Assembly: GCA_964501135.1 (NCBI GenBank)
Contig: CAZCRI010000003.1
Location: 18,654-82,653 of the forward strand
DNA from: an uncultured Candidatus Saccharibacteria bacterium
GTDB lineage: Bacteria; Patescibacteriota; CPR2; UBA1875; CAIMLA01
DNA length: 64,000 nucleotides
Direction of reading: 5' to 3'
Below the pieces are notes generated by a model. It saw only the letters and a list, made by a program, of their open reading frames with translations, was not told the DNA's origin and ran no database searches. The position numbers were made by a program, and so were the translations under genes. How positions within the stretch are numbered: position 1 is the stretch's first letter; the number at the start of each line of letters is the position of its first letter. Positions 1 through 62,043 of the stretch are shown here, in pieces.

Positions 1-96
1 TGGAACCGACACCCCAAGCCAAGTGGTGGTGAATTACATATTATGATGACTAAATACCGCGGAAGCCCTCAGGCAACGCGTAAAAAGAGTCTTTTT

Positions 97-3877: not shown

Positions 3878-3932
3878 TTTGTCTCCCCCCGAGACGTCGA
3901 ACTTGCTTTTGCGGGTACAACTTGTCGAGCAA

Positions 3933-3961
3933 GATTATATACCATTTATACCTCCGTGTCA
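3933..3961 (-). promoter_or_regulatory. Consensus sigma-70 type promoter TTGACA-N17-TATAAT for the SigH-like gene
   Basis: Minus strand: ttgaca(3956-3961) 17-nt spacer tataat(3933-3938). Confidence 0.5.
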
Positions 3962-7591: not shown

Positions 7592-7605
7592 AATAAGATT
7601 ATACT

Positions 7606-7634
7606 TGACAATTCTGTCCAAAAGACGTATTATA
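7606..7634 (+). promoter_or_regulatory. Promoter TTGACA-N17-TATTAT for high-GC gene 7698-8087
   Basis: ttgaca 7606-7611, 17-nt spacer, tattat 7629-7634. Confidence 0.45.
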
Positions 7635-7697
7635 TGCTGTCGAAATCATTCGACCTACCGACGAGGTTGCCCAAAGGCAACGAGGGGAGGTGGCTTC

Positions 7698-8087
7698 ATG
7701 CCGCCGATTGCTAGCGAAGAAGAGAAGAGGCAGTACATCGAACTTCTCCTGAAGAACGCTCGTAGACTGGACTACCGGTCTATCCTGCGTTCACCGGAAG
7801 TGAAGCAGGAGTTGAACGGTCAGGAACTGCCGTCCAGTCTTCCGGTCTGGACTATTGCCATCGACGCTGATGACACCTACATCGTCACCGGCCTCGACGC
7901 CAAGGGGCAGGAAGTCGTGAACTTCCTCTACACCATCGGTGGAGAAGAGTACGAACCACGACTCACCACCTTTGTGGCCGCCCAGCTGCTCGTCGAAGGG
8001 GCCATCATCGACCTCATCGTCCAGCACGGCCCTGGCCTCTACTCTGATGTCATCATCGACGAGGTTGTTCAGGACATGGTCGGGTAG
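7698..8087 (+). CDS. Hypothetical protein (130 aa), high-GC island gene
   Basis: RBS gaggggagg then ATG at 7698 (ORF track frame opens at 7605); ~58% GC. Confidence 0.5.
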   Translation: MPPIASEEEKRQYIELLLKNARRLDYRSILRSPEVKQELNGQELPSSLPVWTIAIDADDTYIVTGLDAKGQEVVNFLYTIGGEEYEPRLTTFVAAQLLVEGAIIDLIVQHGPGLYSDVIIDEVVQDMVG

Positions 8088-8223
8088 TCGGCATCCACTC
8101 ACAACAAGGTCCGCCAGGAGAAGGCAGCCAGACCCTCGACTTTACCCGAAGTCCGAGCCACATCACGCCCCGTAGGACGTTCTCAACTCGAGAGCGCCCT
8201 CCGGGGCGCTTTCATGTAAAAAT

Positions 8224-8255
8224 ACATTCTAACATTCTATAGAATGTTAGAATGT
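8224..8255. promoter_or_regulatory. Perfect 32-bp palindrome copy 3 upstream of high-GC membrane protein gene
   Basis: acattctaacattctatagaatgttagaatgt exact. Confidence 0.85.
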
Positions 8256-8413
8256 TGTGCTGAGTAATAATTAAGCTAAGGACGGTAAACCCCTTTACAA
8301 AGGCGGAAAAGGGGAATATAATCTGGCCGTCGAGATTCTTCGACGCACTTTGACTGGTGCTTATATTCGAAACGTGGCCTGGCGGCCACCAAGACCTAAG
8401 GAGGCTGGGCCTA

Positions 8414-8965
8414 ATGAACCCAACTCTTCGTTTGACATGGCGCCTCGCGCCCTATATGTTCTTCGCCCTCGGCGGACTGCTCCTCGTAGCTCTCGAACTC
8501 ACCGTCCTGATCCTGATCGGTGTTCACGGTCTGGATGCACTCACGGTGATCGGAACCATCTATCTGGCGTACGTCTGCAAGATGATCGTCGAGTACATGG
8601 GTGGCAACGTGATCGTCAACGAGCTTGGCGAACGCAACGGAAAACCGATCAAGGTCTTCCGTCCTGGCAAGAAGAACATTCGCTTTCTGAAGAAGCTTGG
8701 CTGGTATCACGACTTGGGGAACTACTATCCCGTACTCGTGAACCCTCGTGAGGGCAAGTTTAGCCTCACCAAGCATCTCTTCATGCTCGAACCTGGCTCG
8801 GAGAAGTTCTCCGACCAGCTCCTCGAAGTAGCAGCCACCAACGCGGTGGCCTACGAGGAAATCGCAAAGAAGGTCCAGACCAGCAAGTACTGCGCTTCAA
8901 GTGATCTGAGAAAGTTCGAGAAGGCGAATGCCATCTCGGAGTCAATCAAGGATATCGTGAAGTAG
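8414..8965 (+). CDS. Hypothetical membrane protein (2 TM N-terminus + soluble C-terminus), high-GC island gene
   Basis: RBS aaggagg then ATG 8414 (MNPTLRL...); hydrophobic segments FFALGGLLLVALELTVLILIGV. Confidence 0.5.
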   Translation: MNPTLRLTWRLAPYMFFALGGLLLVALELTVLILIGVHGLDALTVIGTIYLAYVCKMIVEYMGGNVIVNELGERNGKPIKVFRPGKKNIRFLKKLGWYHDLGNYYPVLVNPREGKFSLTKHLFMLEPGSEKFSDQLLEVAATNAVAYEEIAKKVQTSKYCASSDLRKFEKANAISESIKDIVK

Positions 8966-9048
8966 AACACAACCAGACTACAGACAACAGACAACACAGA
9001 ACATAGTCTGAGAAGAATAGTGAGTGTCCCACACCAGTCAAAGCGCAG

Positions 9049-9088
9049 GGGGCCGACCGCGAACAGCGGCCGGCCCCTTTGCCGTTTT
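9049..9088 (+). terminator. GC-rich rho-independent terminator
   Basis: ggggccgaccgc-gaaca-gcggccggcccc then tttgccgtttt. Confidence 0.6.
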
Positions 9089-9144
9089 ACCTTGTTTTAA
9101 GCACTACTCAAGAGTAGAATGTGGTTATACCAAGGAGAAATTCT

Positions 9145-11250
9145 ATGTCAAACCTTAACCTTAGTGATAACGAAAAACGAGATATTCAAAAATATCTTAC
9201 AGAAAATAAACTGCTCCCAGATAAATACAGGTTTCTTCTTTTTGATTCGACTCGTGAAGTAGAACTTATATGGAATGGCATGTCAGATGATATTGAGAGT
9301 TCAGTATTGCCATTTCAGACAATTGAGCATATTGATGAGCCACGAGATGAAGAGAAGATAAACTCTCAACAAGTGTTATTTGACACCTCGGGAAAACAAA
9401 TCGAAGGATGGTCAAATAAGCTTATCTGGGGCGATAACAAATTTATAATATCCTCACTTAAGAATGGCCCTCTTAGAAAACAGATTGAAGCAGAAGGCGG
9501 ACTAAAGTTAATCTATATAGACCCACCATTTGATGTCGGAGCTGACTTTTCTATGGAGGTAGAAGTTGGAGAGAATAACAGTAAGAATATCTTTACAAAA
9601 AAGCCATCGGTAATTGAAGAGGTCGCATACCGGGACACATGGGGAAAAGGCGCTGACAGCTTCATCTCAATGATATATGAACGACTGAAATTAATGAATG
9701 ATTTATTATCTGAAGACGGAAGTATTTACATACATTGTGACTCACGCGTAAATAGTTATATTCGTCTAATCCTTGACGAAGTGTTTGGAAGAGAAAACTT
9801 TGTAAATGAAATTGCCTGGTGCTACACGAGTGGCGGTGCTGGTAAAACAGCTTTTTCAAAAAAACATGATACGATATACCTCTATTCGAAGGCCAATAAG
9901 CACATTTTTAACATTCAATACTATAAGCGTTATGCCCTAATTCAAGAAGGGGAAGAAGTAGGTTTTGATCCTAGGATACAGTACTATAAAGATGAAAAGG
10001 GGAGAAGTTATCGTTTAAATCTTACTCTTGACTGGTGGAGCGACATTGGAATTGTTTCACCAAATAGCAACACAGAAAGGACGGACTATCCAACACAAAA
10101 GCCAGAGGGCTTACTTCAGAGAATAATTGAGACTTCATCAAATAAGGGCGATTTAGTAGCCGACTTTTTCTGTGGTTCAGGTACAACATTGGCAGTAGCA
10201 GAAAAACTGGGTCGTAAATGGATTGGTTCTGATCTTGGACGGTTTTCAATTCACACCACTCGTAAACGAATGATTGGCGTGCAACGAGAACTAAAAAATG
10301 CCGGGACAGACTTTAGACCATTTGAGATACTTAATATCGGTAAATACGAGAGGGAAAAGTACCTCGGTATTAACGATAGTTTGCGCGATGAAGAAAAACG
10401 AATGCAAAGAGAAAATAAGGAACGCGAATTTATCAAACTCATTCTTTCAGCCTATAAAGCCGAGGCTGTAAATTCCTTTAATAATTTCGTTGGGAAGAAG
10501 CGAGATAGGCTGGTAGCCGTGGGGTCAATTGATACGCCAGTAACAAATGACTTTCTGGAGAATATAATTATTGAGTGCAAAGAAAAGCATATTACAAAAG
10601 TAGACATTCTCGGATTTGACTATGAAATGGGCCTGGACTTTGAAACAACAAAGAAGCTAGGTATTGATGTTCAGTTTAAGGTCATACCTCGAGAAGTATT
10701 TGATAAAAGAGCAATAGAAAGAGGGCAAGTAAAGTTCTATGATGTTGCTTACATTGAAGTTAAACCCATTATCAAGGGCAGAGGAAATGAAAAAGAGGTA
10801 GCAATTGAACTAACCGACTTTAGCGTTTTTTACAATCAGGATAATACCGGAGAGGTTGAGGAAAAATTACAGGCCGGCGGCAGTAAAATTGTTATTGAAA
10901 ATGGACAGGTTATTAAAATTTTCAAGGATAAACAAAGCGGTATAGTAGAACGTGAAACTCTCACGAAGAAATGGACAGACTGGATTGATTATTGGTCTGT
11001 TGACTTTGAATTTGAAAGCAAGAAAGAACTTATCAACATCGCAGATCCCGCAACTGGTAGGGAGGAAAAGAAGTGGACTGGTAATTACATTTTTGAAAAT
11101 GAATGGCAATCCTTTAGAACTAAAAAAAACAGAAACTTAGAGTTAACATCTGCATATAAAATTACGTCGAAGGGTAAAATGAAAATTGCTATCAAGGTAA
11201 TTGATATTTTCGGTAACGATACCACCAAGGTAATTGAGGTGAATGTATGA
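9145..11250 (+). CDS. mod: Type III restriction-modification methyltransferase (Mod), beta-class N6A/N4C MTase
   Basis: Motif IV DPPF (IYIDPPFDV) precedes motif I FCGSGTT (ADFFCGSGTTLAVAEKLGRKWIGSD) with TRD between, the Type III Mod order; RBS aaggaga before ATG 9145; low GC (~37%). Confidence 0.8.
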   Translation: MSNLNLSDNEKRDIQKYLTENKLLPDKYRFLLFDSTREVELIWNGMSDDIESSVLPFQTIEHIDEPRDEEKINSQQVLFDTSGKQIEGWSNKLIWGDNKFIISSLKNGPLRKQIEAEGGLKLIYIDPPFDVGADFSMEVEVGENNSKNIFTKKPSVIEEVAYRDTWGKGADSFISMIYERLKLMNDLLSEDGSIYIHCDSRVNSYIRLILDEVFGRENFVNEIAWCYTSGGAGKTAFSKKHDTIYLYSKANKHIFNIQYYKRYALIQEGEEVGFDPRIQYYKDEKGRSYRLNLTLDWWSDIGIVSPNSNTERTDYPTQKPEGLLQRIIETSSNKGDLVADFFCGSGTTLAVAEKLGRKWIGSDLGRFSIHTTRKRMIGVQRELKNAGTDFRPFEILNIGKYEREKYLGINDSLRDEEKRMQRENKEREFIKLILSAYKAEAVNSFNNFVGKKRDRLVAVGSIDTPVTNDFLENIIIECKEKHITKVDILGFDYEMGLDFETTKKLGIDVQFKVIPREVFDKRAIERGQVKFYDVAYIEVKPIIKGRGNEKEVAIELTDFSVFYNQDNTGEVEEKLQAGGSKIVIENGQVIKIFKDKQSGIVERETLTKKWTDWIDYWSVDFEFESKKELINIADPATGREEKKWTGNYIFENEWQSFRTKKNRNLELTSAYKITSKGKMKIAIKVIDIFGNDTTKVIEVNV

Positions 11251-11804
11251 GCCAGCAATTCATTCCTTTTAGCCATGAGGACATAGAACTAAAAAATGCC
11301 TTGGTCGGTAAAGCAAGGGAATTAAGGAGCTCTGAAGATCTTGGTGCACAACTTTCATCGGCACTAATTTACGCAAGTATTACTGAGTATTTAGCCGAGA
11401 ACTTGTTAGCCAACTTAAGATACCTTGTTTATCGCTCCTCCTATGTTGACTTTGCCGGAATAATATTTATTGATGAGAGAAAGAAGACAAATAAGGCACA
11501 AAAGCAAACACTCGGAGACTCCAAGAACAACCTTGGAAAATACAGTTTCCCAGATAAGCCAGATATTATGGCGGTATTAGAGGAGATAAATAAATCAAGG
11601 AATAATCTATTCCACAATCTCGCCAAAGTTAAAGAGTCGGAATTGCATAAGATAGATACAGACATCAAATGTATACAGAATAATACAGAAGAATTTATTG
11701 AAAAAGTAAATGTACTTTATGCTGGTTTGCAGAAATTGGTAATACCAGAGGCGCCCCAAGTGCCGACTGATACTAAGGAGGGAAAAGAAAATGGCACTGC
11801 ATAA
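11247..11804 (+). CDS. Hypothetical 185-aa protein inserted between mod and res (overlaps both)
   Basis: ATGA overlap with mod stop and 14-nt overlap with res start; no motif recognised. Confidence 0.6.
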   Translation: MSQQFIPFSHEDIELKNALVGKARELRSSEDLGAQLSSALIYASITEYLAENLLANLRYLVYRSSYVDFAGIIFIDERKKTNKAQKQTLGDSKNNLGKYSFPDKPDIMAVLEEINKSRNNLFHNLAKVKESELHKIDTDIKCIQNNTEEFIEKVNVLYAGLQKLVIPEAPQVPTDTKEGKENGTA

Positions 11805-14472
11805 AGATTTTCCTAAGGACAAATTTCAAATACTCGACCCAGCGATTAGATGGTTTCCGGCTGAGGAGGATTTACGTAAGGATGGCTACGAAAAACTCCT
11901 GCCGCCTTTCGTACCTGAGTTAAGGGAAAGAGTAGCGGAGTGGCGTAAGGATCACTATGAGGGTGCTAGTAAGACCTCAAAGGCACTTCTAAGCTGGTGG
12001 TTTAAGGAGCCCCATACTATTTATGGCAAAGATGGTACAAGTATAGCTTTTCAATACTATTTTGCACAAAGAGAAGCCGTAGAAACAATCATCTGGTTAT
12101 ATGAAACGGAAAAAGTAGAGGGTAAATACGATTTAATAAAGTTTGACAAACTGGGACGGGTCAGTCCTAATATGTTTAGTGAAGAGTGGCTACGCTTTGT
12201 TATTAAGATGGCAACAGGTAGTGGCAAGACAAAAGTTATGAGTTTGCTTCTCGCCTGGTCTTACTTTCACAAGCTTTATGAAGAAGGGTCCCAGCTTTCC
12301 AAGAACTTCTTGCTCATAACGCCAAATATCATTGTTCTAGACAGGATTAAAAATGACTTTGTAGGTCTCAAGATATTCTACGAAGACCCAATTCTCCCAG
12401 ACAATGGCTACCATGGTCAAAACTGGCAAGATGATTTTCAGTTAAAGCTTCATCTACAGGATGAGGTTGGTGCTATTTCTAAATCTGGAAACATCTTTCT
12501 AACAAACATACACAGAGTGTATGAAGGAAGCATCAACGAGGCTAGTGCTGATGATGTTGATGTATCAAATTATTTTATGGGCAGTAAGGTGACAGGCAAA
12601 ACTAATGACTCAAAGGTAGATTTGGGTGAAATAGTAAGAGATATTGATGAGCTTATGATAATCAATGATGAAGCGCATCATATCCATGATCCGAATATGG
12701 CTTGGTCAAAGTCAATTGAAGATATTCATAACAAACTTCTACAAAAAGGTGGCAAACTTGCCTTGCAAATTGATGTTACCGCGACGCCAAAAAACAATCG
12801 TGGAGAGATTTTTGTTCAGACCGTAACTGACTACCCACTGGTTGAGGCCATCCACCAGGGTGTTGTCAAAAATCCAGTTTTGCCAGATCTTGCTAGCCAG
12901 GCAAAGTTACAAGAAAAACAAAGCTCAATTTTTTCTGAAAAGTATGAAGACTACATCCGACTTGGTGTAGAAGAGTGGGCCAAAACCTATAAAGAACTTG
13001 AACCGACAGGCAAGAAATCGATCTTGTTCATAATGACTGACGATACCAAGAACTGTGATGACGTAGCTGAGTTTTTAGAGAGGAGCTACGCACAACTCAA
13101 AGGGGCTGTTTTAACAATTCACACTAACCAAAGTGGTGAAATATCAGAGACAGTCTCAGGGAAGAAAGAAAAAGAATTACAAGAACTTCGTAAAAAGGCA
13201 AATGAGATAGATAGTCTTGAGAGTCCGTATAGGGTTATCGTTTCGGTACTTATGCTAAAAGAAGGTTGGGATGTAAAGAACGTAACAACTATCGTGGGGT
13301 TGCGACCATATGGTTCAGACTCAAAAATTCTCCCCGAACAAACTCTCGGTCGCGGTCTTCGTAGAATGTATTTTGGACAAGATGTTGAGGAATACGTGAG
13401 CGTCATCGGTACACCTGCATTTATGGAGTTTGTAGAGTCAATCAAGGCTGAAGGTGTTGAGTTAGAAAAGAGAAGAATGGATCGTTCAGGCACTCCGATT
13501 ACACCGACTGTTATTGAGGTTGATACCGCAAATGTCAAAAAGGATATTGATAATCTAGATATTGAGCTGCCAGTTCTTACTCCGAGAATACAGAGAGAAT
13601 ACAAAAATCTGAATCTTTTGAGTGTTGATAAATTCAAACACAAAAGAATCAAAATAAAACAGTTCTCAGAGGAAGAGAAAAAAGAGATTGTTTTCAAGGA
13701 AATAATTGAAGACAAGTTACATCATACAACAGTCCTGAATAGTTCTATTGAACCTAACTATCAAAGTGTAGTTGGATTCTTTGTTCAACGAATTATGAAA
13801 GAACTAAGGTTGTTCGGTTGCTACGATATACTTTTTGGTAAAGTAAAGGTGTTTATAACTCACGACTTATTTGAAAAGGAAGTTGATCTAAACGACTCCA
13901 ATATTCTGAGAAACCTGTCTGAATTAGAGGCAGTCAAAACAATAGTTGAGACATTCAAAAAGGAAATAAATGACCTGACAGTACAGGATGTTGGTGATAC
14001 TGAAATAAAGAATTATCTCAAAGTAAGTAGCGCGAGACCTTTCGTTGTTACTGATGCTAAATATCTTCTACCGAAGAAAAGCGTATTCAATAAGATAGTT
14101 GGAGATAGTGATTTTGAGCTGGAATTTGCAGATTTTCTTGAGAGAGCTGATGATGTTATTTCATTTGCGAAGAACTACCTAGAAATTCACTTCAAGATTG
14201 ACTATAAAAATGCAAGCGGAGCAATTTCCAGCTATTACCCAGATTTCTTTGTCAAAACAGATAATAAGACGGTCTATATTGTAGAAACTAAGGGACGAGA
14301 AGATCTAGACGATATAGAGAAAATTAAGAGATTGGCACAATGGTGTGAAGACGCAACTGAAAGACAAAAGAAGATAGAATACAAGATGCTTTACGTGAAG
14401 CAAGACGAATGGGAGAGATATAGACCAAGTAAATTCACCGAGTTGATTACTAGTATTGGAATGAAGCCATGA
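11791..14472 (+). CDS. res: Type III restriction enzyme Res subunit (SF2 helicase + C-terminal PD-(D/E)xK nuclease)
   Basis: Walker A MATGSGKTKVM, DEAH box IINDEAHHIHD, helicase motif VI-like region, C-terminal YYPDFFV...VYIVETKGRED nuclease motif. Confidence 0.8.
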   Translation: MALHKDFPKDKFQILDPAIRWFPAEEDLRKDGYEKLLPPFVPELRERVAEWRKDHYEGASKTSKALLSWWFKEPHTIYGKDGTSIAFQYYFAQREAVETIIWLYETEKVEGKYDLIKFDKLGRVSPNMFSEEWLRFVIKMATGSGKTKVMSLLLAWSYFHKLYEEGSQLSKNFLLITPNIIVLDRIKNDFVGLKIFYEDPILPDNGYHGQNWQDDFQLKLHLQDEVGAISKSGNIFLTNIHRVYEGSINEASADDVDVSNYFMGSKVTGKTNDSKVDLGEIVRDIDELMIINDEAHHIHDPNMAWSKSIEDIHNKLLQKGGKLALQIDVTATPKNNRGEIFVQTVTDYPLVEAIHQGVVKNPVLPDLASQAKLQEKQSSIFSEKYEDYIRLGVEEWAKTYKELEPTGKKSILFIMTDDTKNCDDVAEFLERSYAQLKGAVLTIHTNQSGEISETVSGKKEKELQELRKKANEIDSLESPYRVIVSVLMLKEGWDVKNVTTIVGLRPYGSDSKILPEQTLGRGLRRMYFGQDVEEYVSVIGTPAFMEFVESIKAEGVELEKRRMDRSGTPITPTVIEVDTANVKKDIDNLDIELPVLTPRIQREYKNLNLLSVDKFKHKRIKIKQFSEEEKKEIVFKEIIEDKLHHTTVLNSSIEPNYQSVVGFFVQRIMKELRLFGCYDILFGKVKVFITHDLFEKEVDLNDSNILRNLSELEAVKTIVETFKKEINDLTVQDVGDTEIKNYLKVSSARPFVVTDAKYLLPKKSVFNKIVGDSDFELEFADFLERADDVISFAKNYLEIHFKIDYKNASGAISSYYPDFFVKTDNKTVYIVETKGREDLDDIEKIKRLAQWCEDATERQKKIEYKMLYVKQDEWERYRPSKFTELITSIGMKP

Positions 14473-15317
14473 ACTGGACTCCCATAATTGAAGCCGTCTA
14501 TACCGCACTCCGTGTCGGGGCTATCATCCTGCCGCTATTTTTGGTTGTTGACTTTCTAAACCACAAATATGGAAACGACATCGAGAATATTCTACGCAAG
14601 TCCCGCAAGTTCATGCCTATCGTCGGCGCCCTCCTCGGCATCTTACCGGGATGCAACGTGGCGGTAGTTACGGCCATCTTCTTTACTGAGGGCATTGCCT
14701 CACTGGGAACCTTGGTCGCGGTACTTATCGCCAAATCGGACGAAGCGCTTTACGTATTCTTACCCCTAGGGTTCAAGTCTTTCTTACCGATATTACTCGC
14801 TAAGCTAGTACTAGCTATTCTTGCTGGATATCTCATAGATTTCCTACCAAAGATGAAAATGCGCGCTGCCAAACTAGAAACCGATATCGAATTCTGCTGC
14901 GCCCAGCATCCACACCACGACGGTAGAAAAGGGGAGATCGTCCACGCCATCAAGCACACCGTTCGTGTAATGCTGATCGTTTTTGTTACCCTAGCACTCT
15001 TCAACTACGTCCAAGATACCTACGGCACCGGTTTCCTGACTGATTTCTTTGGTCACATACGAATACTAGAGCCGATTATTGCCGCCTTTGCCGGACTAAT
15101 ACCGGGCTGTGGCACCAGTATCGCTATCGCAACACTATATGTACAAAAAGTGATTACCTTTGGCGCTGCGGTTGCAGGCCTCTCCACAGCGAGTGGGGAA
15201 GTGTTTGTCGTTCTGGCTGCACGCGGAGTAAAACCAAAGTATCTAGTAACGATTGCGGCGATACTAGTAATCATCAGCTCCATAGCTGGCATTGCGCTTG
15301 ATTTAATCATCAAATAA
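14469..15317 (+). CDS. Integral membrane protein with internal duplication (two LPGC(N/G) motifs), putative permease; translationally coupled to res
   Basis: ATGA overlap with res stop; ~8 hydrophobic helices; ILPGCNVAV and LIPGCGTSIA repeats. Confidence 0.6.
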   Translation: MNWTPIIEAVYTALRVGAIILPLFLVVDFLNHKYGNDIENILRKSRKFMPIVGALLGILPGCNVAVVTAIFFTEGIASLGTLVAVLIAKSDEALYVFLPLGFKSFLPILLAKLVLAILAGYLIDFLPKMKMRAAKLETDIEFCCAQHPHHDGRKGEIVHAIKHTVRVMLIVFVTLALFNYVQDTYGTGFLTDFFGHIRILEPIIAAFAGLIPGCGTSIAIATLYVQKVITFGAAVAGLSTASGEVFVVLAARGVKPKYLVTIAAILVIISSIAGIALDLIIK

Positions 15318-15508: not shown

Positions 15509-15626
15509 GAGTGACCTTAAACTCTCATGGATTTGTCTAATTCAGTACACTAACTCTGATTTAAGTTGATGCTGAATAGCCACTGCGAAGGTCCGCAGAC
15601 CGCCGCATTTATAATGTCTTTTTGGA

Positions 15627-15718
15627 TACTTTTGTGACTACGGACAAAAGTATCGGCTAAGCCTTGCTTTAGCAAGGCAAAGAAGAATAGTTTGCTTTAC
15701 CATGGTCGCAATGCAGCA
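15627..15718 (+). promoter_or_regulatory. H1-H2-M composite element copy B (H1 15627-15654, H2 15662-15679, degenerate M ~15701-15718)
   Basis: atacttttgt-gactacgg-acaaaagtat (stem shortened on both arms relative to copy at 100-129, i.e. compensatory); gccttgctttagcaaggc. Confidence 0.45.
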
Positions 15719-53820: not shown

Positions 53821-53849
53821 ATTGTATATAAAATATGGGTAAATGTCAA
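53821..53849 (-). promoter_or_regulatory. Consensus promoter TTGACA-N17-TACAAT at the edge of the high-GC insertion, reading into rplC
   Basis: Minus strand: ttgaca (53844-53849), 17-nt spacer, tacaat (53821-53826). Confidence 0.5.
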
Positions 53850-53863
53850 CTATTTTGGTCGAC

Positions 53864-53892
53864 GTGGGCAGCGGGGTTTCCCCGCCGCCCAC
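53864..53892. other. GC-rich stem-loop (gtgggcagcgggg-tttc-ccccgccgcccac) flanked by gtcgac repeats, 3' of island gene 53913-54236
   Basis: 13-bp stem with one mismatch; no clear U-tract. Confidence 0.5.
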
Positions 53893-53912
53893 GGTCGTCG
53901 ACGTTGACGCGT

Positions 53913-54236
53913 CTAGTGGCCCTCGGCCTGCTCCTTACGAGCCCTGTCGATTCGGATAGCCTCCTCGTAGTTGTAGACCGACTTGAGTCGCTTGAAGCCC
54001 TCAGGATTCTCGCGATCAAGTTCCTGCCAAGTTGCGAGGTCCATGCCCCGAAGGGCAAAGATGGTCTCGCGAGCCCGTGTCGCGTCTCCCCACAGATCAG
54101 GTTCGAGCTCGACCGCCTGTTCGACAAGAGTGTCGAGAGTCACCTCGGGGCACCCCTGCTTCCCAGGGATAGCGTACCTCGGTCCCTGACGAATGAAGAA
54201 CAACATCTGAGCATAGAACTGGTCGATTTCGTTCAC
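53913..54236 (-). CDS. Hypothetical protein (107 aa), high-GC insertion between rpsJ and rplC
   Basis: ~56% GC ORF in an operon position that is normally rpsJ directly followed by rplC. Confidence 0.5.
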   Translation of the reverse strand: MNEIDQFYAQMLFFIRQGPRYAIPGKQGCPEVTLDTLVEQAVELEPDLWGDATRARETIFALRGMDLATWQELDRENPEGFKRLKSVYNYEEAIRIDRARKEQAEGH

Positions 54237-54269
54237 TGCATCACCTTCCTCTTTGGCTTCATGGCTATG

Positions 54270-54800
54270 CTAGAAGAGCTCGCCCTGGCCGTCACCGGCA
54301 CCCGTAAGCTTCTGGAACTTGGCCTTCGCTCTCGCTTCTTCCTTGGCCTTCTTCTCGGCCTTCATAGCCCTGTCAGCAGCCATAATCGCCGCTGTGTCGA
54401 GAACGTTCGCCTCGGCACGTGCAAAGATGGCAGACAACTCTGAAGTAGACAACGAGCCGATGGCACGAGAACGGAACTCAACGAGCCGATACTGGCTAGG
54501 CGCCAGCATATCAACGTCGATTCCGTAGTCCATACGCAACTTGGCAGCAATCAGGTGACCGTAATTACGGTCAACAGTATCTCCGTGGTTGTCCTTGAGC
54601 CAGGCATTCTTCTGTTCGACACTGACTACAAAACTCACACGGTATTTGGACCTGCCAAGCACCTCGAACTCAGCCACCCAGGGGCAGTTCGGGCGCTTAA
54701 CTCCAGCTTCTTGCTCTGTAAGCAAAGCTGTCACTGAGACCACCCCTTCCAGGGTACTATTTGACGTCAACGAACACCACTTCACGGTGTGAAGCGACAC
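54270..54800 (-). CDS. Hypothetical protein (up to 176 aa; true start may be internal GTG after ggaagggg), high-GC insertion, K/A/E-rich C-terminus
   Basis: High GC; no motif recognised. Confidence 0.45.
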   Translation of the reverse strand: MSLHTVKWCSLTSNSTLEGVVSVTALLTEQEAGVKRPNCPWVAEFEVLGRSKYRVSFVVSVEQKNAWLKDNHGDTVDRNYGHLIAAKLRMDYGIDVDMLAPSQYRLVEFRSRAIGSLSTSELSAIFARAEANVLDTAAIMAADRAMKAEKKAKEEARAKAKFQKLTGAGDGQGELF

Positions 54801-55259
54801 TATAATTTAATACTAAATTGCCATTTTGTCAATAATCTGACCTTCTCCTCTCCCCGAAAAATCGCCCGGGCTCGCAGCCCCGACTATCCTCGAATGCTAG
54901 AAATTATTGCAAGTTTACTCAGCAAAATTTCGTACAGGGCGTTCTGGGTTCGATTTTTCTTGAACTTTGGGATACCTTTCTTTTAAGAGAAAGGTATCAA
55001 GAAACGTAGTATTAAGATTCCCTTCTTCAAGGGAATGACAGGAAAATGGGGCACAAAGAAATCCTGTCCGATGATTCCGACTGGACGAATATTGGACTCG
55101 TCGGAGAATCAAATTCAAGATGCCAGGAGAAAGGCTGGGTTCCTGGCTTACGACCAGGAATGACAATACCAGTAATCAAAAGGAGCCCCCAGGGGCCCCC
55201 TTTTGATAGTTATTACCCCGACGTTCGTCGGGATCTCGCAAAAGCAATCCGCCTTTGCT

Positions 55260-55580
55260 TTACATCTTGATTTCGATGTCTACTCCGGCTGGAAGTGAAA
55301 GACTCATCAAACTATCTACTGTCTTCGCAGTGAAGTCAGTAATGTCGATCAGGCGCTTGTGCACCCGCATCTCGAACTGTTCACGTGCGTTCTTATTGAC
55401 GTTGCTAGCACGGTTTACGGTGATAGGAGTTCTATCGGTTGGTAGTGGGATTGGTCCTGCTACCTTCGCACCGCTGCGTACTGCAGTCTCAATAATCTGC
55501 GTTGTCGACTGGTCAATAATCTTGTTATCGTAAGCCTTCAGTTTGATTCGGATTCTCTGTTTTTCGTTTTTCTCAGCCAT
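55260..55580 (-). CDS. rpsJ: 30S ribosomal protein S10
   Basis: Start at [18 protein letters not shown] (internal to ORF-track entry). Confidence 0.95.
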
Positions 55581-55629
55581 ATGTCTCCTTCTAGTTCCCA
55601 GGGTCACATTGCCCTGCTATCTATAAGTT

Positions 55630-55674: not shown

Positions 55675-56850
55675 CTATTTGTTGATCTTGGTAACTACAC
55701 CAGCGCCAACTGTACGGCCACCTTCGCGGATAGCGAAGCGAAGACCTTCCTCGATAGCGATTGGCTGGATAAGCTTAACGGCCATCTTGACGTTATCGCC
55801 AGGCATAACCATTTCGCCTTCGAACTCGATCTCACCAGTTACATCAGTTGTACGGATGTAGAACTGAGGCTTGTAACCCTTGAAGAAAGGAGTGTGACGT
55901 CCGCCTTCTTCTTTGGTAAGAACGTATACTTCAGCGTCGAACTCAGTATGAGGTGTAATAGAACCAGACTTAGCTAGAACCATTCCGCGCTCAATATCAT
56001 TCTTTTCAATACCGCGTAGTAGTAGGCCAGCATTGTCACCAGCTTGTCCCTGCTCGAGCTGCTTTTTAAACATCTCGATACCAGTAACAACGGTCTTGCG
56101 AGTAGGTTTGATACCAATGATTTCTACTTCGTCGTTGATCTTAACAACACCACGGTCGATACGACCAGTAGCAACTGTACCACGTCCCTTGATAGAGAAA
56201 ACGTCTTCTACAGCCATCATGAAAGGCTTGTCAGTATCACGAGTAGGCTCTGGAATGTATTCATCAAGAGCGTTCATAAGCTCCATGATTGACTCTTCGT
56301 ACTTAGCATCGCCTTCAAGCGCCTTAAGAGCTGAACCACGAATGATAGGTGTGTTGTCACCATCATATTTGTACTTAGTAAGAAGTTCACGAATTTCCAT
56401 CTCAACAAGGTCAAGCATCTCTGCATCATCAACCATGTCGCATTTGTTCATGTAAACAACGATTTGTGGAACACCAACCTGGTAAGCAAGTAGGATGTGC
56501 TCACGAGTCTGTGGCATAGGACCGTCAGTAGCAGCCACAACCAAGATAGCGCCGTCCATCTGTGCAGCACCAGTGATCATGTTCTTTACGTAGTCGGCAT
56601 GTCCAGGACAGTCAACGTGCGCATAGTGACGCTTGTCTGTCTCATACTCTTGATGAGAAGTAGCAATAGTAATACCGCGCTCGCGCTCTTCTGGAGCGTT
56701 GTCGATGTCGGCAAACTTTCTAGCAGTAGCTAGGCCTTTCTTTGCTAGTACAGATGTAATAGCAGCTGTCAGGGTTGTCTTACCATGGTCAACGTGTCCG
56801 ATAGTACCAACGTTTACATGGGGCTTGTCTCTCTTATAAACTTCAGCCAT
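55675..56850 (-). CDS. tuf: Elongation factor Tu
   Basis: [27 protein letters not shown] motifs. Confidence 0.97.
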
Positions 56851-57132
56851 TTGGTCTCCTTGTAAGTTTTTACTTTGTTAATTTTGTTTAATATTCTTGG
56901 TAATACACTTTAAATCCCCCGCGTCCTTCGTGACGTGGCGGATATGTATTCATTTGGCCTACAAATATTACTATATATCACTACTTTGTGCAAGTATTTA
57001 ATAGTGAAAGTTCATAAAATTTGTAATGCCATAAGGTCTATAACGTAGAAGGCCGCGTGCCCGCCTCCTCGTCTGCTTTCGCAGAGAAGTGCGGACCCAC
57101 GGCCCAGAAGGAATTCGTCACCTTCGCTGCGC

Positions 57133-57672
57133 CTAAGCGCTTGGAGAGTGACCACTGTTGGCGAGACGCTCACCTATGGCAAGGTAGAGCACACAGGCGA
57201 GCACGATGAAGGCAGTAACCACAAGCGAGCCGGGCCAAACGGCGAGCGGTGTCCAAAGCAGCCACCGTGGAGCATGGTAACCGACTACTGCCAGTACAGC
57301 GAGGTACTCGACGAAGAGCACTACAGCCGTTACCAGCTTCCAGTGCTCGATTGACGAAAGGACCAAGCCCAACACTGCATACCAGAAGTCGCTGGGATGC
57401 ATCCTCGAACGCGACGCTCTGGAGCCGGCCGTGCGCGGCATCGTGTTGTAGACTCCGCTCTTGTGGCAAGCCACGTTGGAGCAGTGCGGACACTGCCCAG
57501 TAGACTTCTGCCAGAAGCACTGGAAACCACCAGACCACAGAAGGTAAGCGACCAGGGAGACGCCTCCCACAACCGCAAGCGCGAGCAGCGCTACTCCGAA
57601 GACAGCCAGTCTCTCGACCGCATCTCCGAAGAGAACGAGCATCGTCGTGATGCCAACCGTGTCGCTGTTCAT
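57133..57672 (-). CDS. Hypothetical polytopic membrane protein with CPHC motif, high-GC island between fusA and tuf
   Basis: ~62% GC; 4-5 hydrophobic helices; overlaps upstream ORF by ATGA. Confidence 0.5.
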   Translation of the reverse strand: MNSDTVGITTMLVLFGDAVERLAVFGVALLALAVVGGVSLVAYLLWSGGFQCFWQKSTGQCPHCSNVACHKSGVYNTMPRTAGSRASRSRMHPSDFWYAVLGLVLSSIEHWKLVTAVVLFVEYLAVLAVVGYHAPRWLLWTPLAVWPGSLVVTAFIVLACVLYLAIGERLANSGHSPSA

Positions 57673-57929
57673 GACATCCCCAATTCAGTAGGTCTCGGGC
57701 CAAAATCGGCGATGTTTACGACAACGTCCCCTACCTGCAGGTCATGAACCGAATCCTCTTCGGTCACAACCAGAGGCTGTGTGCACAACTGGTAGTTGCG
57801 CTTGTCGGTCTTACCGAGCTGCTCCACCAGCCCACGAGAGTAATCGAGCGTGACAGATGTCGCCAGCGGCGGAAGCTCCTCGGTTGATATCGCCCTACCT
57901 CCCGGCAGGGAGACAATGACTTTACTCAT
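57669..57929 (-). CDS. Hypothetical protein (86 aa; ORF-track alternative 57669-58058), high-GC island
   Basis: RBS ggggggttgacc then ATG at 57929 (MSKVIVSLPGG...). Confidence 0.4.
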   Translation of the reverse strand: MSKVIVSLPGGRAISTEELPPLATSVTLDYSRGLVEQLGKTDKRNYQLCTQPLVVTEEDSVHDLQVGDVVVNIADFGPRPTELGMS

Positions 57930-57949
57930 GGTCAACCCCCCATCTGGCG

Positions 57950-58087
57950 TTAGGCGCCCTCGTCGTTGCCCAACTGAACCGGCAGCAATCCACTCTCGAC
58001 CAGAACCCACAGGCCCCAAGCTGCGAAGCAGACCAAGTAGACCACGGCGGTCCACCACAGGTCACTCAACTTCTTCTTCATATTCAT
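57950..58087 (-). CDS. Possible 45-aa single-TM peptide (MNMKKKLSDLWWTAVVYLVCFAAWGLWVLV...)
   Basis: Hand translation; sits directly downstream of promoter P2; overlaps alternative long ORF so only one of the two can be real. Confidence 0.3.
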   Translation of the reverse strand: MNMKKKLSDLWWTAVVYLVCFAAWGLWVLVESGLLPVQLGNDEGA

Positions 58088-58147
58088 CCCCTCGTCTCTT
58101 CAAGGTGCACGCCGTAAGGCGCATGCACCTTTGGCTTCAATGGCGGT

Positions 58148-58176
58148 ATTATATGCCGAATGGTGGCTAAAATCAA
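58148..58176 (-). promoter_or_regulatory. Promoter P2 TTGATT-N17-TATAAT inside high-GC island
   Basis: Minus strand ttgatt (58171-58176) 17-nt spacer tataat (58148-58153); core ggtattatatgccgaa duplicated at 59150-59166. Confidence 0.5.
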
Positions 58177-58249
58177 GGAAAACGAAAAGGCCACGAACCG
58201 CATGGCCTTCCCGAACTATTGCGAGAAATGCTATTGCGTGTCGTGGCCT

Positions 58250-58570
58250 CTATGTGTACCTCTGGCAGGCAAGGCAGACCCTGAAACCGAAGTCCTTGAC
58301 CAGGATGTTCATCACAGCCTCGTCGACCAGGAAGCATGCCGAGTTTGTAGAGTCACGCCGGCGTTCGGCGTAAATCTCGGCGAATTCTGCACGAAACTCG
58401 TCGAAGTCGACAAGGTCACGGCAGACAAGAACCCGGCAGTTGTTGTAGTAACGTCCGCATGCTGAGTGTGTCCACTCCCTGTCACGCCTTGCGATGTGCA
58501 GTACCTTGGAGCCATCGATTACGACGTACCAGGGCTTCTCACCAGACCTGAGCCGAAAGCTCCTACCCAT
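58250..58570 (-). CDS. Hypothetical protein (106 aa, Cys-rich), high-GC island
   Basis: High GC ORF; no motif recognised. Confidence 0.4.
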   Translation of the reverse strand: MGRSFRLRSGEKPWYVVIDGSKVLHIARRDREWTHSACGRYYNNCRVLVCRDLVDFDEFRAEFAEIYAERRRDSTNSACFLVDEAVMNILVKDFGFRVCLACQRYT

Positions 58571-58596
58571 CAGTTTCCTCCGCTCATGTCGTAACC

Positions 58597-58845
58597 CTAG
58601 CCGAGATCTTCAGCTGCCGTGATAACCTTGGCCAGTACGGAAGCGAGGTTCTTCGCGTCGCTGAGGTCGAGGGTCTGGTACCCTGACGTCGAAGCGTCTA
58701 CCAGGCTCTTGGTCCAGATGCGAACCCTCGGCTCGTCCCCCTTCTTCTCACCAGGATTCGCCATGGCATCGAAAACAGGTGCCTTGATGCACGATTCGAT
58801 CGTAGTACCATCGGCATCCAAGTGCCAAGTATTACCTCTACTCAT
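58597..58845 (-). CDS. Hypothetical protein (82 aa), high-GC island
   Basis: High GC ORF. Confidence 0.4.
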   Translation of the reverse strand: MSRGNTWHLDADGTTIESCIKAPVFDAMANPGEKKGDEPRVRIWTKSLVDASTSGYQTLDLSDAKNLASVLAKVITAAEDLG

Positions 58846-58860
58846 AGTCTTACACCTCCT

Positions 58861-59109
58861 CTACCAGTCTCGCTGATGCTCAGGTACACCACATGCCGCT
58901 AACCAACAGTATCGCACTGCTCGATAGCCGAGATATATGGGTATCCACGAGAGGATAGCCAATCCCTCCTTCCAATTCGGCAGATCCTTCGGCGCCCCCT
59001 CGCTGAAAACAACCCAAAGTAGGGCAACGGCGCCGATCAGCCACAGCAGACCGATGGCCGCGAAAGGAGCAATCTGGACAAACTGGAACAACGTCATCGT
59101 AGACCCCAA
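58861..59109 (-). CDS. Hypothetical small membrane protein (82 aa; may start at second ATG 59097)
   Basis: Two hydrophobic helices; downstream of promoter P1. Confidence 0.45.
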   Translation of the reverse strand: MGSTMTLFQFVQIAPFAAIGLLWLIGAVALLWVVFSEGAPKDLPNWKEGLAILSWIPIYLGYRAVRYCWLAACGVPEHQRDW

Positions 59110-59156
59110 TCTATGGTACGCGCCGCCAGGCGCTTTATACCTGACTTTGTGCCGGT

Positions 59157-59185
59157 ATTATATGCCGAAAACCGGCAATAATCAA
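59157..59185 (-). promoter_or_regulatory. Promoter P1 TTGATT-N17-TATAAT inside high-GC island
   Basis: Minus strand ttgatt (59180-59185) 17-nt spacer tataat (59157-59162). Confidence 0.5.
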
Positions 59186-59316
59186 CGTTTTTAACGCCAA
59201 TTTGCCCTGTGGCGCGTCTACAGCCCCTAGAACACACGATTAATATGACGCGTCTAAAATACGACCACCTAAATACTCCTTGCTTCAGCAAGGGAAGAAA
59301 CGAGATTAGTACCAAT

Positions 59317-59345
59317 CAAAAAGACCTCATTACTGAGGTCTTTTT
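59317..59345 (-). terminator. Rho-independent terminator after fusA
   Basis: aaaaagacctcattactgaggtctttttg. Confidence 0.75.
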
Positions 59346-59370: not shown

Positions 59371-61491
59371 TTATTCTGCCTGTTTCTTACCGCGCTTAGC
59401 GATAATTTCCTGGGCAACATTTCCTGGTACTTCCTCGTAGTGATCAAACTCCATAGTACTAGTACCACGACCTTGAGTCATCGAGCGAAGGTTGGTAGCA
59501 TAACCAAACATCTCAGCAAGTGGGACGAAAGCATCTACAATCTTGGCGTTACCACGATCTGACATCTGCTGAATGCGTCCACGCTTTGAGTTTAGGTCAC
59601 CCATAATATCACCCATATACTCTTCTGGTACGGTAACTTCTACCTTCATGATAGGCTCAAGGATGATAGGAGTAGCCTTGCGTACACCTTCCTGAAGCGC
59701 CATGGAACCGGCAATTTTGAAGGCCATTTCGTTCGAGTCAACCTCGTGAAATGAACCGTCATAAAGAGTAACCTTGACGTCAACTACTGGATAACCAGCG
59801 ATAACACCATTGTCGAGAGCTTCCTTGATACCGTTTTGTACCGGGTTGATATATTCTTTTGGAATCGCGCCACCAACAATCTTGTTAATAAACTCAAATC
59901 CTAGACCTTCTTCGTTAGGCTCAATCTCAATCCAAACATGACCATACTGACCACGTCCACCAGACTGACGAACAAACTTACCTTCTTGTTTTACCTTGCC
60001 CTTGATAGACTCACGATAAGCAACCTGAGGTTTACCAACATTTGCCTCGACCTTGAACTCTCGCTTCATACGATCTACAAGGATATCTAGGTGAAGCTCA
60101 CCCATACCAGCGATAATGGTCTGACCAACTTCTTCGTCCGTATGTACACGGAAAGTAGGATCTTCTTCTGCAAGACGTGCAAGTGCCATGCCCATCTTAT
60201 CTTGGTCGGCTTTTGTCTTAGGCTCTATAGCAATCTCGATAACTGGCTCTGGGAATGTAATATTCTCAAGCTTGATTGGATGTGCTACATCGCAAAGAGT
60301 ATCGCCAGTAGTGGTCTTACCAAGACCAACAGCGGCTGCAATATCACCTGAATAAACTTCACTTAGCTCTTCTCTGTGATTTGCGTGCATCTGTACGATA
60401 CGACCGATACGCTCCTTGCTACCAGTAGTGGCATTTAGGACGTATGAACCCTTCTGTAGAACACCACGATATACACGGAAGAAGATAAGCTTACCAACGA
60501 AAGGGTCTGCGGCTACCTTGAAAGCAAGGGCTGCAAATGGCTCATCGTCAGTAGCTGAGATCGCGAGATCATCACCAGTCTTCTCATCGACAGCGTGTGC
60601 TGGAATAACATCAAGTGGTGATGGTAGATAGTCGATGATAGCATCTACAAGTATAGAAACGATTACACCACGACCATCTCCGCCCAAATATGGATAGAAA
60701 TTACCAGAAACTGTCGCTTTACGGACTAGTTTTTTCAACTCTTCAGCAGTAAATGTTCCACCTGCAAGGTATTTTTCCATAGCATCATCGTCATATTCGA
60801 CGACTTTTTCGATAAGCTCTTCACGGTACTTCTCTACCTTGTCCATCATATCTGCAGGAACCTCGACTTCTTCGAGCTTCTTGTCAGTATACTCTTTGTA
60901 CATATAGGCTTTCATCTCGATAAGATCGACGGCACCCTTGATAGTCTGCTCATGACCGATCGGTAAGAAAATAGGATATGCATTTTTAGATAGTCTATCG
61001 CGAACAGAGTCGAGAGTCTTATAAAAGTCTCCACCTGTCTGGTTGATCTTGTTGGCGAAAAACATACGAGGAACGCTGTATTTGTCAGCCTGACGCCATA
61101 CTGTCTCAGACTGTGGCTCTACGCCCATCTTGCCATCCAAAATAACGACAGCACCGTCTAGTACACGCAAAGAACGCTCTACTTCTACAGTAAAGTCCAC
61201 GTGACCAGGAGTGTCGATGATATTGATACGGTGTTTTTTCCAGAAACAAGTAGTAGCAGCGGAAGTAATCGTGATACCACGCTCTTGTTCTTGCTCCATC
61301 CAGTCCATAGTTGCGGCACCTTCATGCACTTCACCGATCTTGTGAACACGTCCTGAGATATACAAGATACCTTCTGTGACAGTGGTCTTACCTGCATCGA
61401 TGTGCGCAATAGTACCAATATTTCTAGTTTTTTCGAGTGAATATTCTCTAGGCATATAGTTAAGCTCCAATTTCCAAGTACCAAATTCCAA
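59371..61491 (-). CDS. fusA: Elongation factor G
   Basis: [21 protein letters not shown] motifs; 706 aa. Confidence 0.97.
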
Positions 61492-61566: not shown

Positions 61567-62043
61567 TTAGTAACGAGCAAAGTGAGCAAAAGCCTTGTTG
61601 GCTTCGGCCATACGGTGAGTATCTTCCTTTTTCTTCATGGCGATACCAATGCTGTTGTAAGCATCAACTAGCTCAAGGGCGAGTGCCTTTGAGAAGTCCA
61701 TACCCTTACGGTTGCGGGCAGCATCACGAATCCAGCTGAAGCCGTAGTGCATACGACGATCACCCTTTACTTCCATCGGTACCTGGTATGTAGCACCACC
61801 GATGCGGCGTGATTTTACCTGAACTACCGGTGAAACGTTCTTGATGGCGGTTTCGAAGATTTCCAAAGCTGGCTTACCCAGCTTCTTCTCGGCTTCTTCC
61901 ATTGCTCCGTATACTAGGTTCTGAGCAAGACTCTTCTTGCCGTCGAGCATTACCTTGTTGATAAATTTGGACACGATTACGCTACCATACTTTGCGTCTG
62001 GTAACAGGATTCTTTTTTCTACTTTTCTAGGATCTCTTGGCAT
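61567..62043 (-). CDS. rpsG: 30S ribosomal protein S7
   Basis: Family match. Confidence 0.95.
   Translation of the reverse strand: MPRDPRKVEKRILLPDAKYGSVIVSKFINKVMLDGKKSLAQNLVYGAMEEAEKKLGKPALEIFETAIKNVSPVVQVKSRRIGGATYQVPMEVKGDRRMHYGFSWIRDAARNRKGMDFSKALALELVDAYNSIGIAMKKKEDTHRMAEANKAFAHFARY

Follow-up and report, generated by a model that had tools for sequence, protein, structure and literature searches.

How did a segment of about 2.1 kilobases (kb), far richer in guanine plus cytosine (GC) than its surroundings, come to lie between the elongation factor genes fusA and tuf of an uncultured Candidatus Saccharibacteria bacterium, and does it alter the expression of tuf? The window analysed here is a stretch of 64,000 nucleotides (nt) from this organism (assembly GCA_964501135.1, contig CAZCRI010000003.1), in which the str/S10 cluster runs on the minus strand in the order rpsG, fusA, the GC-rich island, tuf, rpsJ, a second GC-rich insert and rplC. 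An earlier note on the same sequence had interpreted the island (57080-59200) as foreign DNA inserted into a normally tight junction. The answer considered fairly likely here is a different one, namely that the island is a strain-variable accessory islet of two autonomous cassettes, which lies between the fusA terminator and the tuf promoter and is exchanged among strains.

Contents and probable exchange of the fusA-tuf slot

The EF-Tu of the window organism was 95% identical to that of L001, a metagenome-assembled genome (MAG) from NCBI labelled 'uncultured Candidatus Saccharibacteria', and its EF-G was 89% identical to the L001 protein in an alignment that also fixed the start of fusA. The next-best EF-Tu matches and the best EF-G matches were found in Saccharibacteria or Patescibacteria MAGs. 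Both conserved flanks lie on the minus strand: fusA (59371..61455) upstream of the island, delimited by its open reading frame (ORF) and the L001 alignment, and tuf (55675..56850) downstream, delimited by its ORF and its identity to L001.

Among the 57 relatives having fusA upstream of tuf, 25 showed a gap of more than 600 base pairs (bp) between the two genes, which contradicts the premise of a normally tight junction. Seven related island loci were recovered from the following sources: L001; L081 and L082, which are Logan assemblies reached via i5, one of the six island genes (i1-i6) described below; and L083-L087, five loci in JGI metagenomes recovered with the tuf-promoter pattern. The Logan contig L081 corresponded to window positions 57484-58696 at 100% identity, and this identity in an independent assembly argues against a chimeric assembly or artefact. 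The junction was tight (93-257 bp) in the slightly more distant L002-L005, and in L002 the slot was empty, with the tuf promoter directly after fusA. The fusA and tuf flanks were collinear in the window, L001, L086 and L002-L005. GC-rich islands occupy the slot in one sub-clade, and their contents vary.

At least six distinct contents were distinguished (the window, L001, L082, L083/L087, L085 and L086), together with a further, partial one in L084, and island length ranged from 0.65 to more than 2.6 kb. The L001 island encodes a membrane protein of 103 amino acids (aa) with two helices, a homologue of i5 and a 60-aa protein with the pattern CxxC...CxxC. The L082 island contains a 56-aa membrane protein and homologues of i4 and i5, followed by a new terminator and a promoter with an i6 homologue; the L086 island is limited to an i6-like membrane protein and a CxxC protein of 43 aa. 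In L083 the small ORFs number at least eight and are arranged in two cassettes, and L084 and L085 carry additional gene sets. All-against-all BLAST sorted the small genes into about seven families occurring in mosaic combinations among the variants, with i4, i5, i6, TM103, Zn-ribbon and 'DFEF..EDGSY' as the families shared in varying combinations.

Divergence was unevenly distributed along the locus. Between the window and L082, the number of synonymous substitutions per synonymous site (dS) in tuf was 0.18, with a nonsynonymous value (dN) of 0.004 over 99 codons, and the tuf promoter plus leader were 94.7% identical. In contrast, dS reached 0.96 in i4, 0.97 in i5 and 1.5 in i6, the island promoter region was just 73% identical, and cassette A was wholly different. 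At the tuf promoter there was a sharp fall in identity, from 95-96% to 71-73%, non-coding sequence included. Similarly, L083 and L085 differed in island content at a tuf dS of 0.18. This discontinuity of dS and identity at the island edge is as predicted by replacement of alleles or cassettes through homologous recombination, and the sequences thus argue for such exchange over divergence in place.

In the mechanism proposed, the interval that separates the fusA terminator from the tuf promoter would be filled variably in one Saccharibacteria sub-clade with cassettes drawn from a GC-richer gene pool common to the clade (~49-57% GC; 0.52-0.82 GC at third codon positions, GC3). Cassettes or alleles would be swapped by homologous recombination. 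The homology would come from the ultra-conserved fusA and tuf genes and from the modules that recur as promoters and terminators, and natural transformation would be the most likely route. Natural competence, with integration of linear DNA via ~1-kb homology arms, has been demonstrated in cultivated Saccharibacteria (PMC10633639).

The opposite explanation is that lineage-specific small operons were inherited vertically, with fast gain and loss of genes in place and a local GC bias, and were not exchanged between strains. It accounts for i5, the most widely shared island gene, occupying the same slot in three genomes, and for the i5 dS of 1.9 between the window and L001 being of the same order as that of fusA (1.34), both values being near saturation. 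Moreover, the elevated GC3 in all variants fits a stable local equilibrium better than import followed by amelioration. Vertical inheritance is nevertheless unlikely, because the synonymous divergence of i4 and i5 between the window and L082 is five-fold that of the adjacent tuf, the drop in identity at the tuf promoter extends to non-coding sequence, the gene content of L083 and L085 is completely different despite their similar tuf genes, and the families occur in mosaic combinations.

The composition of the island set it apart from the rest of the window. Its GC content was 0.563, compared with 0.456 in the remainder, and it was the most GC-rich of all 2.12-kb segments (mean 0.459, standard deviation 0.033; about 3 standard deviations above the mean), the runner-up elsewhere in the window reaching 0.510. 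The 60-62% given in the earlier note therefore held for local peaks (0.61 per 300 nt, 0.596 per 1 kb) but not for the island as a whole, whose 0.56 compares with 0.45-0.47 in the neighbouring genes. Codon positions in the island genes of the window followed the order GC3 > GC1 > GC2, with GC3 of 0.62-0.82 against 0.39 in fusA and 0.42 in tuf. The same held for the island variants of all relatives, whose GC3 was 0.52-0.82 versus 0.39-0.45 in the flanking genes, whatever the gene set. This third-position pattern is the coding signature of a GC-richer genome. Accessory DNA is usually AT-richer than the core, and the GC excess in all island variants is therefore unusual. Because high GC persists in alleles that have diverged to a dS of 1 or more, the data suggest either repeated recruitment from a GC-richer reservoir or a bias that acts locally, for example GC-biased gene conversion at a hotspot of recombination.

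The same contrast (56% versus 46% GC; GC3 0.62-0.82 versus ~0.4) underlay the earlier proposal of a single horizontal insertion, possibly from an actinobacterial host, that split fusA from tuf and now drives tuf; cultivated Saccharibacteria do live on Actinobacteria (PMC10633639). Such an event is highly improbable in view of the seven relatives, which hold differing cassette sets in the slot together with the same non-coding modules. An actinobacterial source is opposed by i5 and i6, which had no relatives outside the clade in searches over 5.8 and 1.84 billion proteins, respectively; no evidence for such an origin was found, and GC3 alone cannot name a donor. Control of tuf by the island is opposed by the terminator module that ends the island and by the retention of the tuf promoter in the island-free L002. 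The part of the earlier proposal that stood is an accessory island, foreign in composition, whose small genes encode membrane or unknown proteins and which has a duplicated consensus promoter.

Several points weigh against an exchanged accessory islet. The low dS of tuf was obtained from 99 codons of a codon-biased gene in which dS is intrinsically low, the non-coding comparison (73% versus 94.7%) covers short stretches, and the i5 divergence between the window and L001 is not clearly above that of the flanks (0.84-1.34). The promoters and terminators that delimit the cassettes are sequence predictions. A route through competence and recombination would be extended to the window organism from cultivated Saccharibacteria, no donor for the high GC was identified, and a local mutational or gene-conversion bias could yield the same GC. 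The envelope function considered below draws on membrane topology and analogy.

A separate situation was observed in many Saccharibacteria of another clade (L012, L018-L024, L026, L031, L039 and L042), in which the fusA-tuf gap holds a conserved gene of ordinary GC encoding ~110-230 aa. The encoded protein has an N-terminal 'GKVVIV..DG...GV.L..DEY.K' segment, which we take to be reminiscent of Phd/YefM antitoxins, and a conserved C-terminal '...EEIKPNFDDI'. The size and content of the L021 gap (~3800-3950) are unreliable because of a run of X in the ORF, reflecting masked or N bases.

Transcription units of the island and the promoter of tuf

The island comprises two complete predicted transcription units, cassettes A and B. 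Each would consist of a sigma-70-type promoter module with a leader GC hairpin, three small genes and a long-stem terminator module. Cassette A runs from promoter P1 through a leader GC hairpin and i1-i2-i3 to T1, a 66-nt long-stem hairpin with a UUUUCGUUUU tail; cassette B begins 7 nt further on and consists of P2, a leader hairpin, i4-i5-i6 and T2. All these elements lie on the minus strand. The predicted promoters P1 (59157..59185) and P2 (58148..58176, directly after the T1 tail) are both TTGATT-N17-TATAAT and were located exactly where the earlier note had placed them; a pattern with 20 specified bases had 2 matches in the window versus 0.01 expected. The two copies form a 36-nt repeat of 81% identity, and other repeats in the island were limited to short two-copy matches at chance level. 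P1 was orthologous to promoters in L001, L082, L083 and L086. A conserved upstream part (59186..59262) aligned with the regions upstream of the L001, L082 and L083 promoters, and it belongs to the promoter module rather than to the insertion site because its counterpart in L083 sits inside the island. Promoter and leader hairpin were alignable over six copies, one of them internal to the L083 island with ~75 nt of upstream sequence. Since the module is conserved across genomes, P2 is not a private duplication of P1.

Leader hairpins 1 (GCGCC-TGGC-GGCGC-GTAC, 59116..59133) and 2 (GCGCC-TTAC-GGCGTGCAC, 58105..58122) each stand behind an island promoter, and the two occurrences of the hairpin motif in the window compare with 0.05 expected. 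Within the window and its relatives, GCGCC-N4-GGCGYGYAC was found only in these islands, where it is also placed ahead of internal genes lacking a promoter. Covariation was modest: 82.5% of the cells were paired and 2 pairs were double-changed, a result matched by 22 of 500 shuffles. Searches with the promoter-module pattern in IMG/VR and the JGI metagenomes gave zero matches, as did a search with the promoter-plus-hairpin pattern.

T1 (58186..58251) has a folding free energy (dG) of -34 kcal/mol and a z-score of -5.4, is followed by UUUUCGUUUUCC, and was also flagged by a terminator scan. The same module occurred in L083 (twice), L085 and L087, in the recurrent form GGCCACGACACGCA...CGTGGCC-UUUUCGUUU. 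T2 (57050..57105; dG -40.4 kcal/mol, z -4.7) ends the island and has a U-poor tail, UUCUACGUU. A manual count gave it ~89% identity with the module that closes the L084 island, the stems differing by compensatory changes (GT...C versus AC...T). All nine cassette-end hairpins that were folded were far stabler than shuffled sequences (dG -26 to -40 kcal/mol, z -3.1 to -6.4), and compensatory changes in their stems were visible but limited by the alignment. The sole IMG/VR match to the terminator pattern, L088, was rejected as a chance match, as it lies inside a GTGGCCAC-rich coding region of 67% GC and shows no protein similarity. An alternative island-end hairpin, CCGGAGGTCC...GGGGCCTCCGG, was observed in L082 (1575-1625, dG -38 kcal/mol) and L086 (6172-6215, dG -26 kcal/mol), where it stands in for the GGCCACG-type module just upstream of the tuf promoter; no U-tract follows it.

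At the other border, the earlier claim that fusA ends with its own terminator was borne out by a hairpin at 59317..59345 on the minus strand, read from the sequence as AAAAAGACCTCA-gtaa-TGAGGTCTTTTT. The same hairpin lies 3' of fusA in L001 and L086. The only Rfam hit, to SpF51, scored 28 bits, below the gathering score of 50, and was dismissed as this terminator.

About 55 nt beyond T2 lies a tuf promoter-like site (TTGCAC-N17-TAATAT, 56965..56993, minus strand), followed by a conserved leader. A simple promoter scan did not call this site. It was kept, together with the leader, in L001, L082-L087 and the island-free L002, where it reads TTGCAG-N17-TAAATT. Transcription of tuf from the island promoters, as suggested earlier, is therefore not supported, because T2 closes the island and the tuf promoter is conserved even where there is no island. 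The sequences indicate that tuf keeps a promoter of its own, independent of those of the island, and partial read-through into tuf may occur owing to the U-poor tail of T2. The island supplements the str operon without rewiring it. In the genetic work on cultivated Saccharibacteria, the tuf and rpsJ promoters were picked as predicted strong and independent promoters, and cassettes derived from them gave selectable resistance and detectable reporters (PMC10633639).

The element GCACAAAGT, present after P1 and in the tuf -35 region, was considered as a target-site duplication and rejected because the pairing is lost in L083 and L086. No tRNA was found near the island. A fragment of an intergenic repeat lies at the flank of the island (59278..59299, minus strand), representing the first hairpin of a ~110-nt element with three successive hairpins: CCTTGCT-NAAG-CAAGG, ATACTTTTGT...ACAAAAGTAT and a GC hairpin. 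This element had 3 matches in the window versus 0.04 expected, with full copies near 15575-15690 and at 55-170 (minus). For the copy at 15.6 kb the folding z-score was -5.4, and the copy at 55-170 shows compensatory stem differences. In L082 the remainder of the repeat occupies positions 1-65, at the same (left) flank of the island. The repeat could be an element resembling repetitive extragenic palindromes (REP) or miniature inverted-repeat transposable elements (MITE), or a small RNA.

Island genes and their possible roles

The six small minus-strand ORFs listed in the earlier note were all present. Its description of overlapping or coupled starts applied to i5 and i6, which overlap in ATGA, whereas the other genes lie 15-26 nt apart. 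A G-rich Shine-Dalgarno site was found 5-9 nt upstream of each of the six ORFs. In cassette A, i1 (58861..59097, GC3 0.62) encodes a membrane protein of 78 aa from its ATG, or the 82 aa noted earlier from an upstream TTG, with a GGGG Shine-Dalgarno site, a hydrophobic segment at residues 6-40 and a C-terminus weakly similar to an L085 ORF. The 82-aa soluble protein encoded by i2 (58597..58845, GC3 0.66, Shine-Dalgarno GAGGAGG) formed a singleton cluster and had no family, PDB, phage, plasmid or IMG/VR match. The product of i3 (58250..58570, GC3 0.70) is a 106-aa soluble protein with six cysteines; it too formed a singleton cluster, occurred also in Logan contig L081, and had no match in family libraries, PDB or IMG/VR. 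An AlphaFold2 (AF2) model of i3 was discarded at a predicted local distance difference test (pLDDT) score of 46.

In cassette B, i4 (57950..58081) encodes a single-pass membrane peptide of 43 aa, or 45 aa from an upstream ATG; the 43-aa form is preferred as the form on record and for its proper spacing from the GAGGGG Shine-Dalgarno site. The possible 45-aa transmembrane peptide of the earlier note thus proved real in its 43-aa form, with an L082 homologue at 58% identity and a dN/dS of 0.33. The 86-aa soluble product of i5 (57669..57929) has a beta-grasp-like fold, for which the BFVD fold library gave no significant match. Finally, i6 (57133..57672), whose start overlaps the i5 stop, encodes the 179-aa polytopic membrane protein with hydrophobic segments and a CPHC motif. 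Both the polytopic protein and its motif were present as noted earlier, but CPHC is absent from the homologues, of which the L082 protein is 41% identical over the C-terminal half and that in L086 is weakly similar. No redox or zinc inference was drawn, since the CPHC of i6 is not conserved and the cysteine pattern of i3 had no comparison.

These ORFs are real genes under clear purifying selection, as judged from dN/dS of 0.19-0.50 (0.19-0.25 in i5, 0.33 in i4 and 0.50 in i6), from GC3 of 0.62-0.82 with GC2 lowest, and from the Shine-Dalgarno sites at all starts. Their relatives were few. The 90% clusters holding i2, i3, i4, i5 and i6 were singletons or had two members. A profile search with i5 over 5.8 billion proteins returned three proteins only, all inside the clade, and an exhaustive phmmer search with i6 over 1.84 billion representatives returned only i6 itself and its L082 homologue. 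Restriction to the clade is claimed for i5 and i6, for which the deep searches were informative. The island proteins matched no Pfam, PHROG, PADLOC or NCBIfam family, and their best PADLOC match had an E-value of 0.025 at 12 bits, with no defence or toxin-antitoxin model reached. They likewise had no PDB match, no tblastn match in phage or plasmid records and no relatives in IMG/VR.

Small overlapping genes that lack known relatives are typical of phages, and units of promoter, genes and terminator with deviant GC fit the definition of a moron (PMC3594210), so that the island might be decayed cargo of a Saccharibacteria phage, satellite or plasmid once integrated here. This origin is distinctly unlikely, given that an integrase, att repeats, a tRNA and structural phage genes were all missing, that the flanks are collinear ribosomal-protein and elongation-factor genes, and that PHROG, INPHARED and IMG/VR gave no match apart from the chance pattern match L088.

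With regard to function, three of the six products (i1, i4 and i6) contain hydrophobic stretches long enough to span a membrane. Under the accessory-islet reading, the products would act at the envelope in strain-specific interactions, namely exclusion of phages or competitors, or contact with the host bacterium. Such a role is proposed tentatively, because half of the products are small membrane proteins, strongly promoted and strain-variable, and because morons often encode exclusion proteins. The main alternative is that the cassettes are addiction or conflict modules, pairing a small membrane toxin with a soluble antidote or a bacteriocin with its immunity protein. Small hydrophobic peptides (43-78 aa) beside small soluble proteins, strong predicted promoters, structured leaders and strain-to-strain variation would suit such modules. 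This alternative has little probability in its turn, since no toxin or antitoxin family of PADLOC, Pfam or NCBIfam was matched, the units are three-gene operons that include a 179-aa polytopic protein, and neither an antisense RNA nor an obvious antitoxin DNA-binding fold was found, i5 being beta-grasp-like.

A broader interpretation is possible but rather doubtful. The island might belong to an undescribed modular cassette system at ultra-conserved translation-gene junctions, shuffled by transformation, with cargo that sets phage and host specificity. Standard promoter, leader-hairpin and terminator modules would bracket GC-rich small genes at fusA|tuf and apparently at rpsJ|rplC in Saccharibacteria, and possibly in other Patescibacteria. 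The extreme conservation of the flanks would provide universal homology arms between strains and species, and the small envelope proteins would determine, strain by strain, the resistance of the epibiont to phages or its specificity for host bacteria.

The genomes of Saccharibacteria are very small, these organisms rely on host bacteria, and little is known of what determines host range or resistance to phages at the strain level. A set of clade-specific envelope proteins that is hypervariable, strongly promoted and placed within the most conserved operon of the genome is a good candidate locus for such traits, and the transformability of Saccharibacteria makes the idea directly testable. In addition, genetic tools could draw on the fusA-tuf junction as a naturally permissive insertion site and on its compact native modules (promoter, leader and terminator). 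The constant GC excess raises the question of where the gene pool resides, and the significance of the locus would be greater if the cassettes proved to govern host or phage specificity.

Other features of the window include the remaining genes of the cluster, rpsG (61567-62043), rpsJ (55260-55607) and rplC (starting near 53699), all on the minus strand. The second GC-rich insert lies between rpsJ and rplC (53860-55170, minus strand). It has a predicted promoter (TTGACA-N17-TAAATT, 54804-54832) with a leader hairpin, followed by j1 (54270-54800) and j2 (53913-54236), which encode soluble proteins of 176 and 107 aa without family match and have GC3 of 0.64-0.70, and it is closed by a GC hairpin ahead of the rplC promoter (53821-53849). 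The same slot holds a different 119-aa GC-rich ORF in L001 and a 3-kb set of other small ORFs in L083. The modules of this insert and of the fusA|tuf island are not in common. Elsewhere, a low-GC block at 9000-14500 (0.38 versus 0.46) encodes, from translations inspected by eye, a 709-aa DNA methyltransferase-like protein and an 893-aa protein resembling a helicase or restriction subunit, and is probably a horizontally acquired restriction-modification system. Further GC-rich genes (0.55-0.60) were seen at 3269-3877 (minus) and 7605-8965 (plus), among them a 202-aa protein resembling a sigma-70-family factor and two more ORFs of 160 and 202 aa that have no obvious identity. Window-wide pattern searches found no match to the island promoter or terminator modules at these two sites.

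Comparison with known variable loci

Classical hallmarks of a genomic island or prophage, namely an integrase, insertion at a tRNA or flanking direct repeats, were absent from the locus. In Neisseria, minimal mobile elements (MMEs; Saunders & Snyder 2002, definition given in PMC3082526) are regions between two conserved genes that hold differing whole-gene cassettes introduced by homologous recombination. The island resembles them in lying between two conserved, collinear genes, in holding differing whole-gene cassettes from strain to strain, in having no transposase, integrase or terminal repeats among its small, family-less ORFs, and in an exchange presumed to proceed by homologous recombination in a transformable lineage, which the breaks in dS and identity suggest here. 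It differs in that its flanks are elongation-factor genes inside the str operon, that its units are bracketed by conserved promoter and terminator modules, which are possible recombination substrates, and that its cargo consists uniformly of GC-rich small genes with no known relatives.

A phage moron (Juhala et al. 2000; reviewed in PMC3594210) is an independent transcription unit that has a promoter and a terminator of its own and differs from its neighbours in GC content. Morons frequently code for small proteins of the inner membrane; one example, HK97 gp15, mediates superinfection exclusion. The island units share with morons, at the sequence level, a promoter and a terminator of their own, the deviant GC and the insertion between genes of a conserved operon. 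Unlike morons, they reside in a cellular chromosome, among rpsG, fusA, tuf, rpsJ and rplC and with no prophage or phage similarity, contain three genes each, and draw their promoters and terminators from a conserved family of modules that recurs from cassette to cassette.

Two further types of variable locus invite comparison. Integron arrays consist of tandem, strain-variable small genes, often lacking relatives and separated by hairpins, and their cassettes are usually promoterless. The island is likewise a tandem of strain-variable small genes separated by conserved hairpin-forming elements. However, no intI integrase was found in the stretch examined between rpsG and rplC, the cassettes start with their own TTGATT-N17-TATAAT promoters, and the hairpins occupy terminator and leader positions, with U-rich, terminator-like 3' tails except for the U-poor tail of T2. 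No attC-type core sites were recognised by eye in the island, no formal attC search having been made. The flexible islets or hypervariable regions of streamlined bacteria, known from metagenome recruitment, are rich in envelope-related genes and genes of unknown function. They resemble the island as small, site-specific variable regions between the core genes of otherwise near-identical strains, whereas the island is only 0.65 to more than 2.6 kb long, exceeds the core in GC and has a modular promoter and terminator architecture.

Taken together, the comparisons describe the island as an MME-like variable slot filled with moron-like cassettes, probably a hotspot of gene swapping rather than a one-off foreign insertion. 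It is unusual in that promoter, leader and terminator modules are reused, that GC is uniformly high, and that it lies within the str operon of an ultra-small epibiont.

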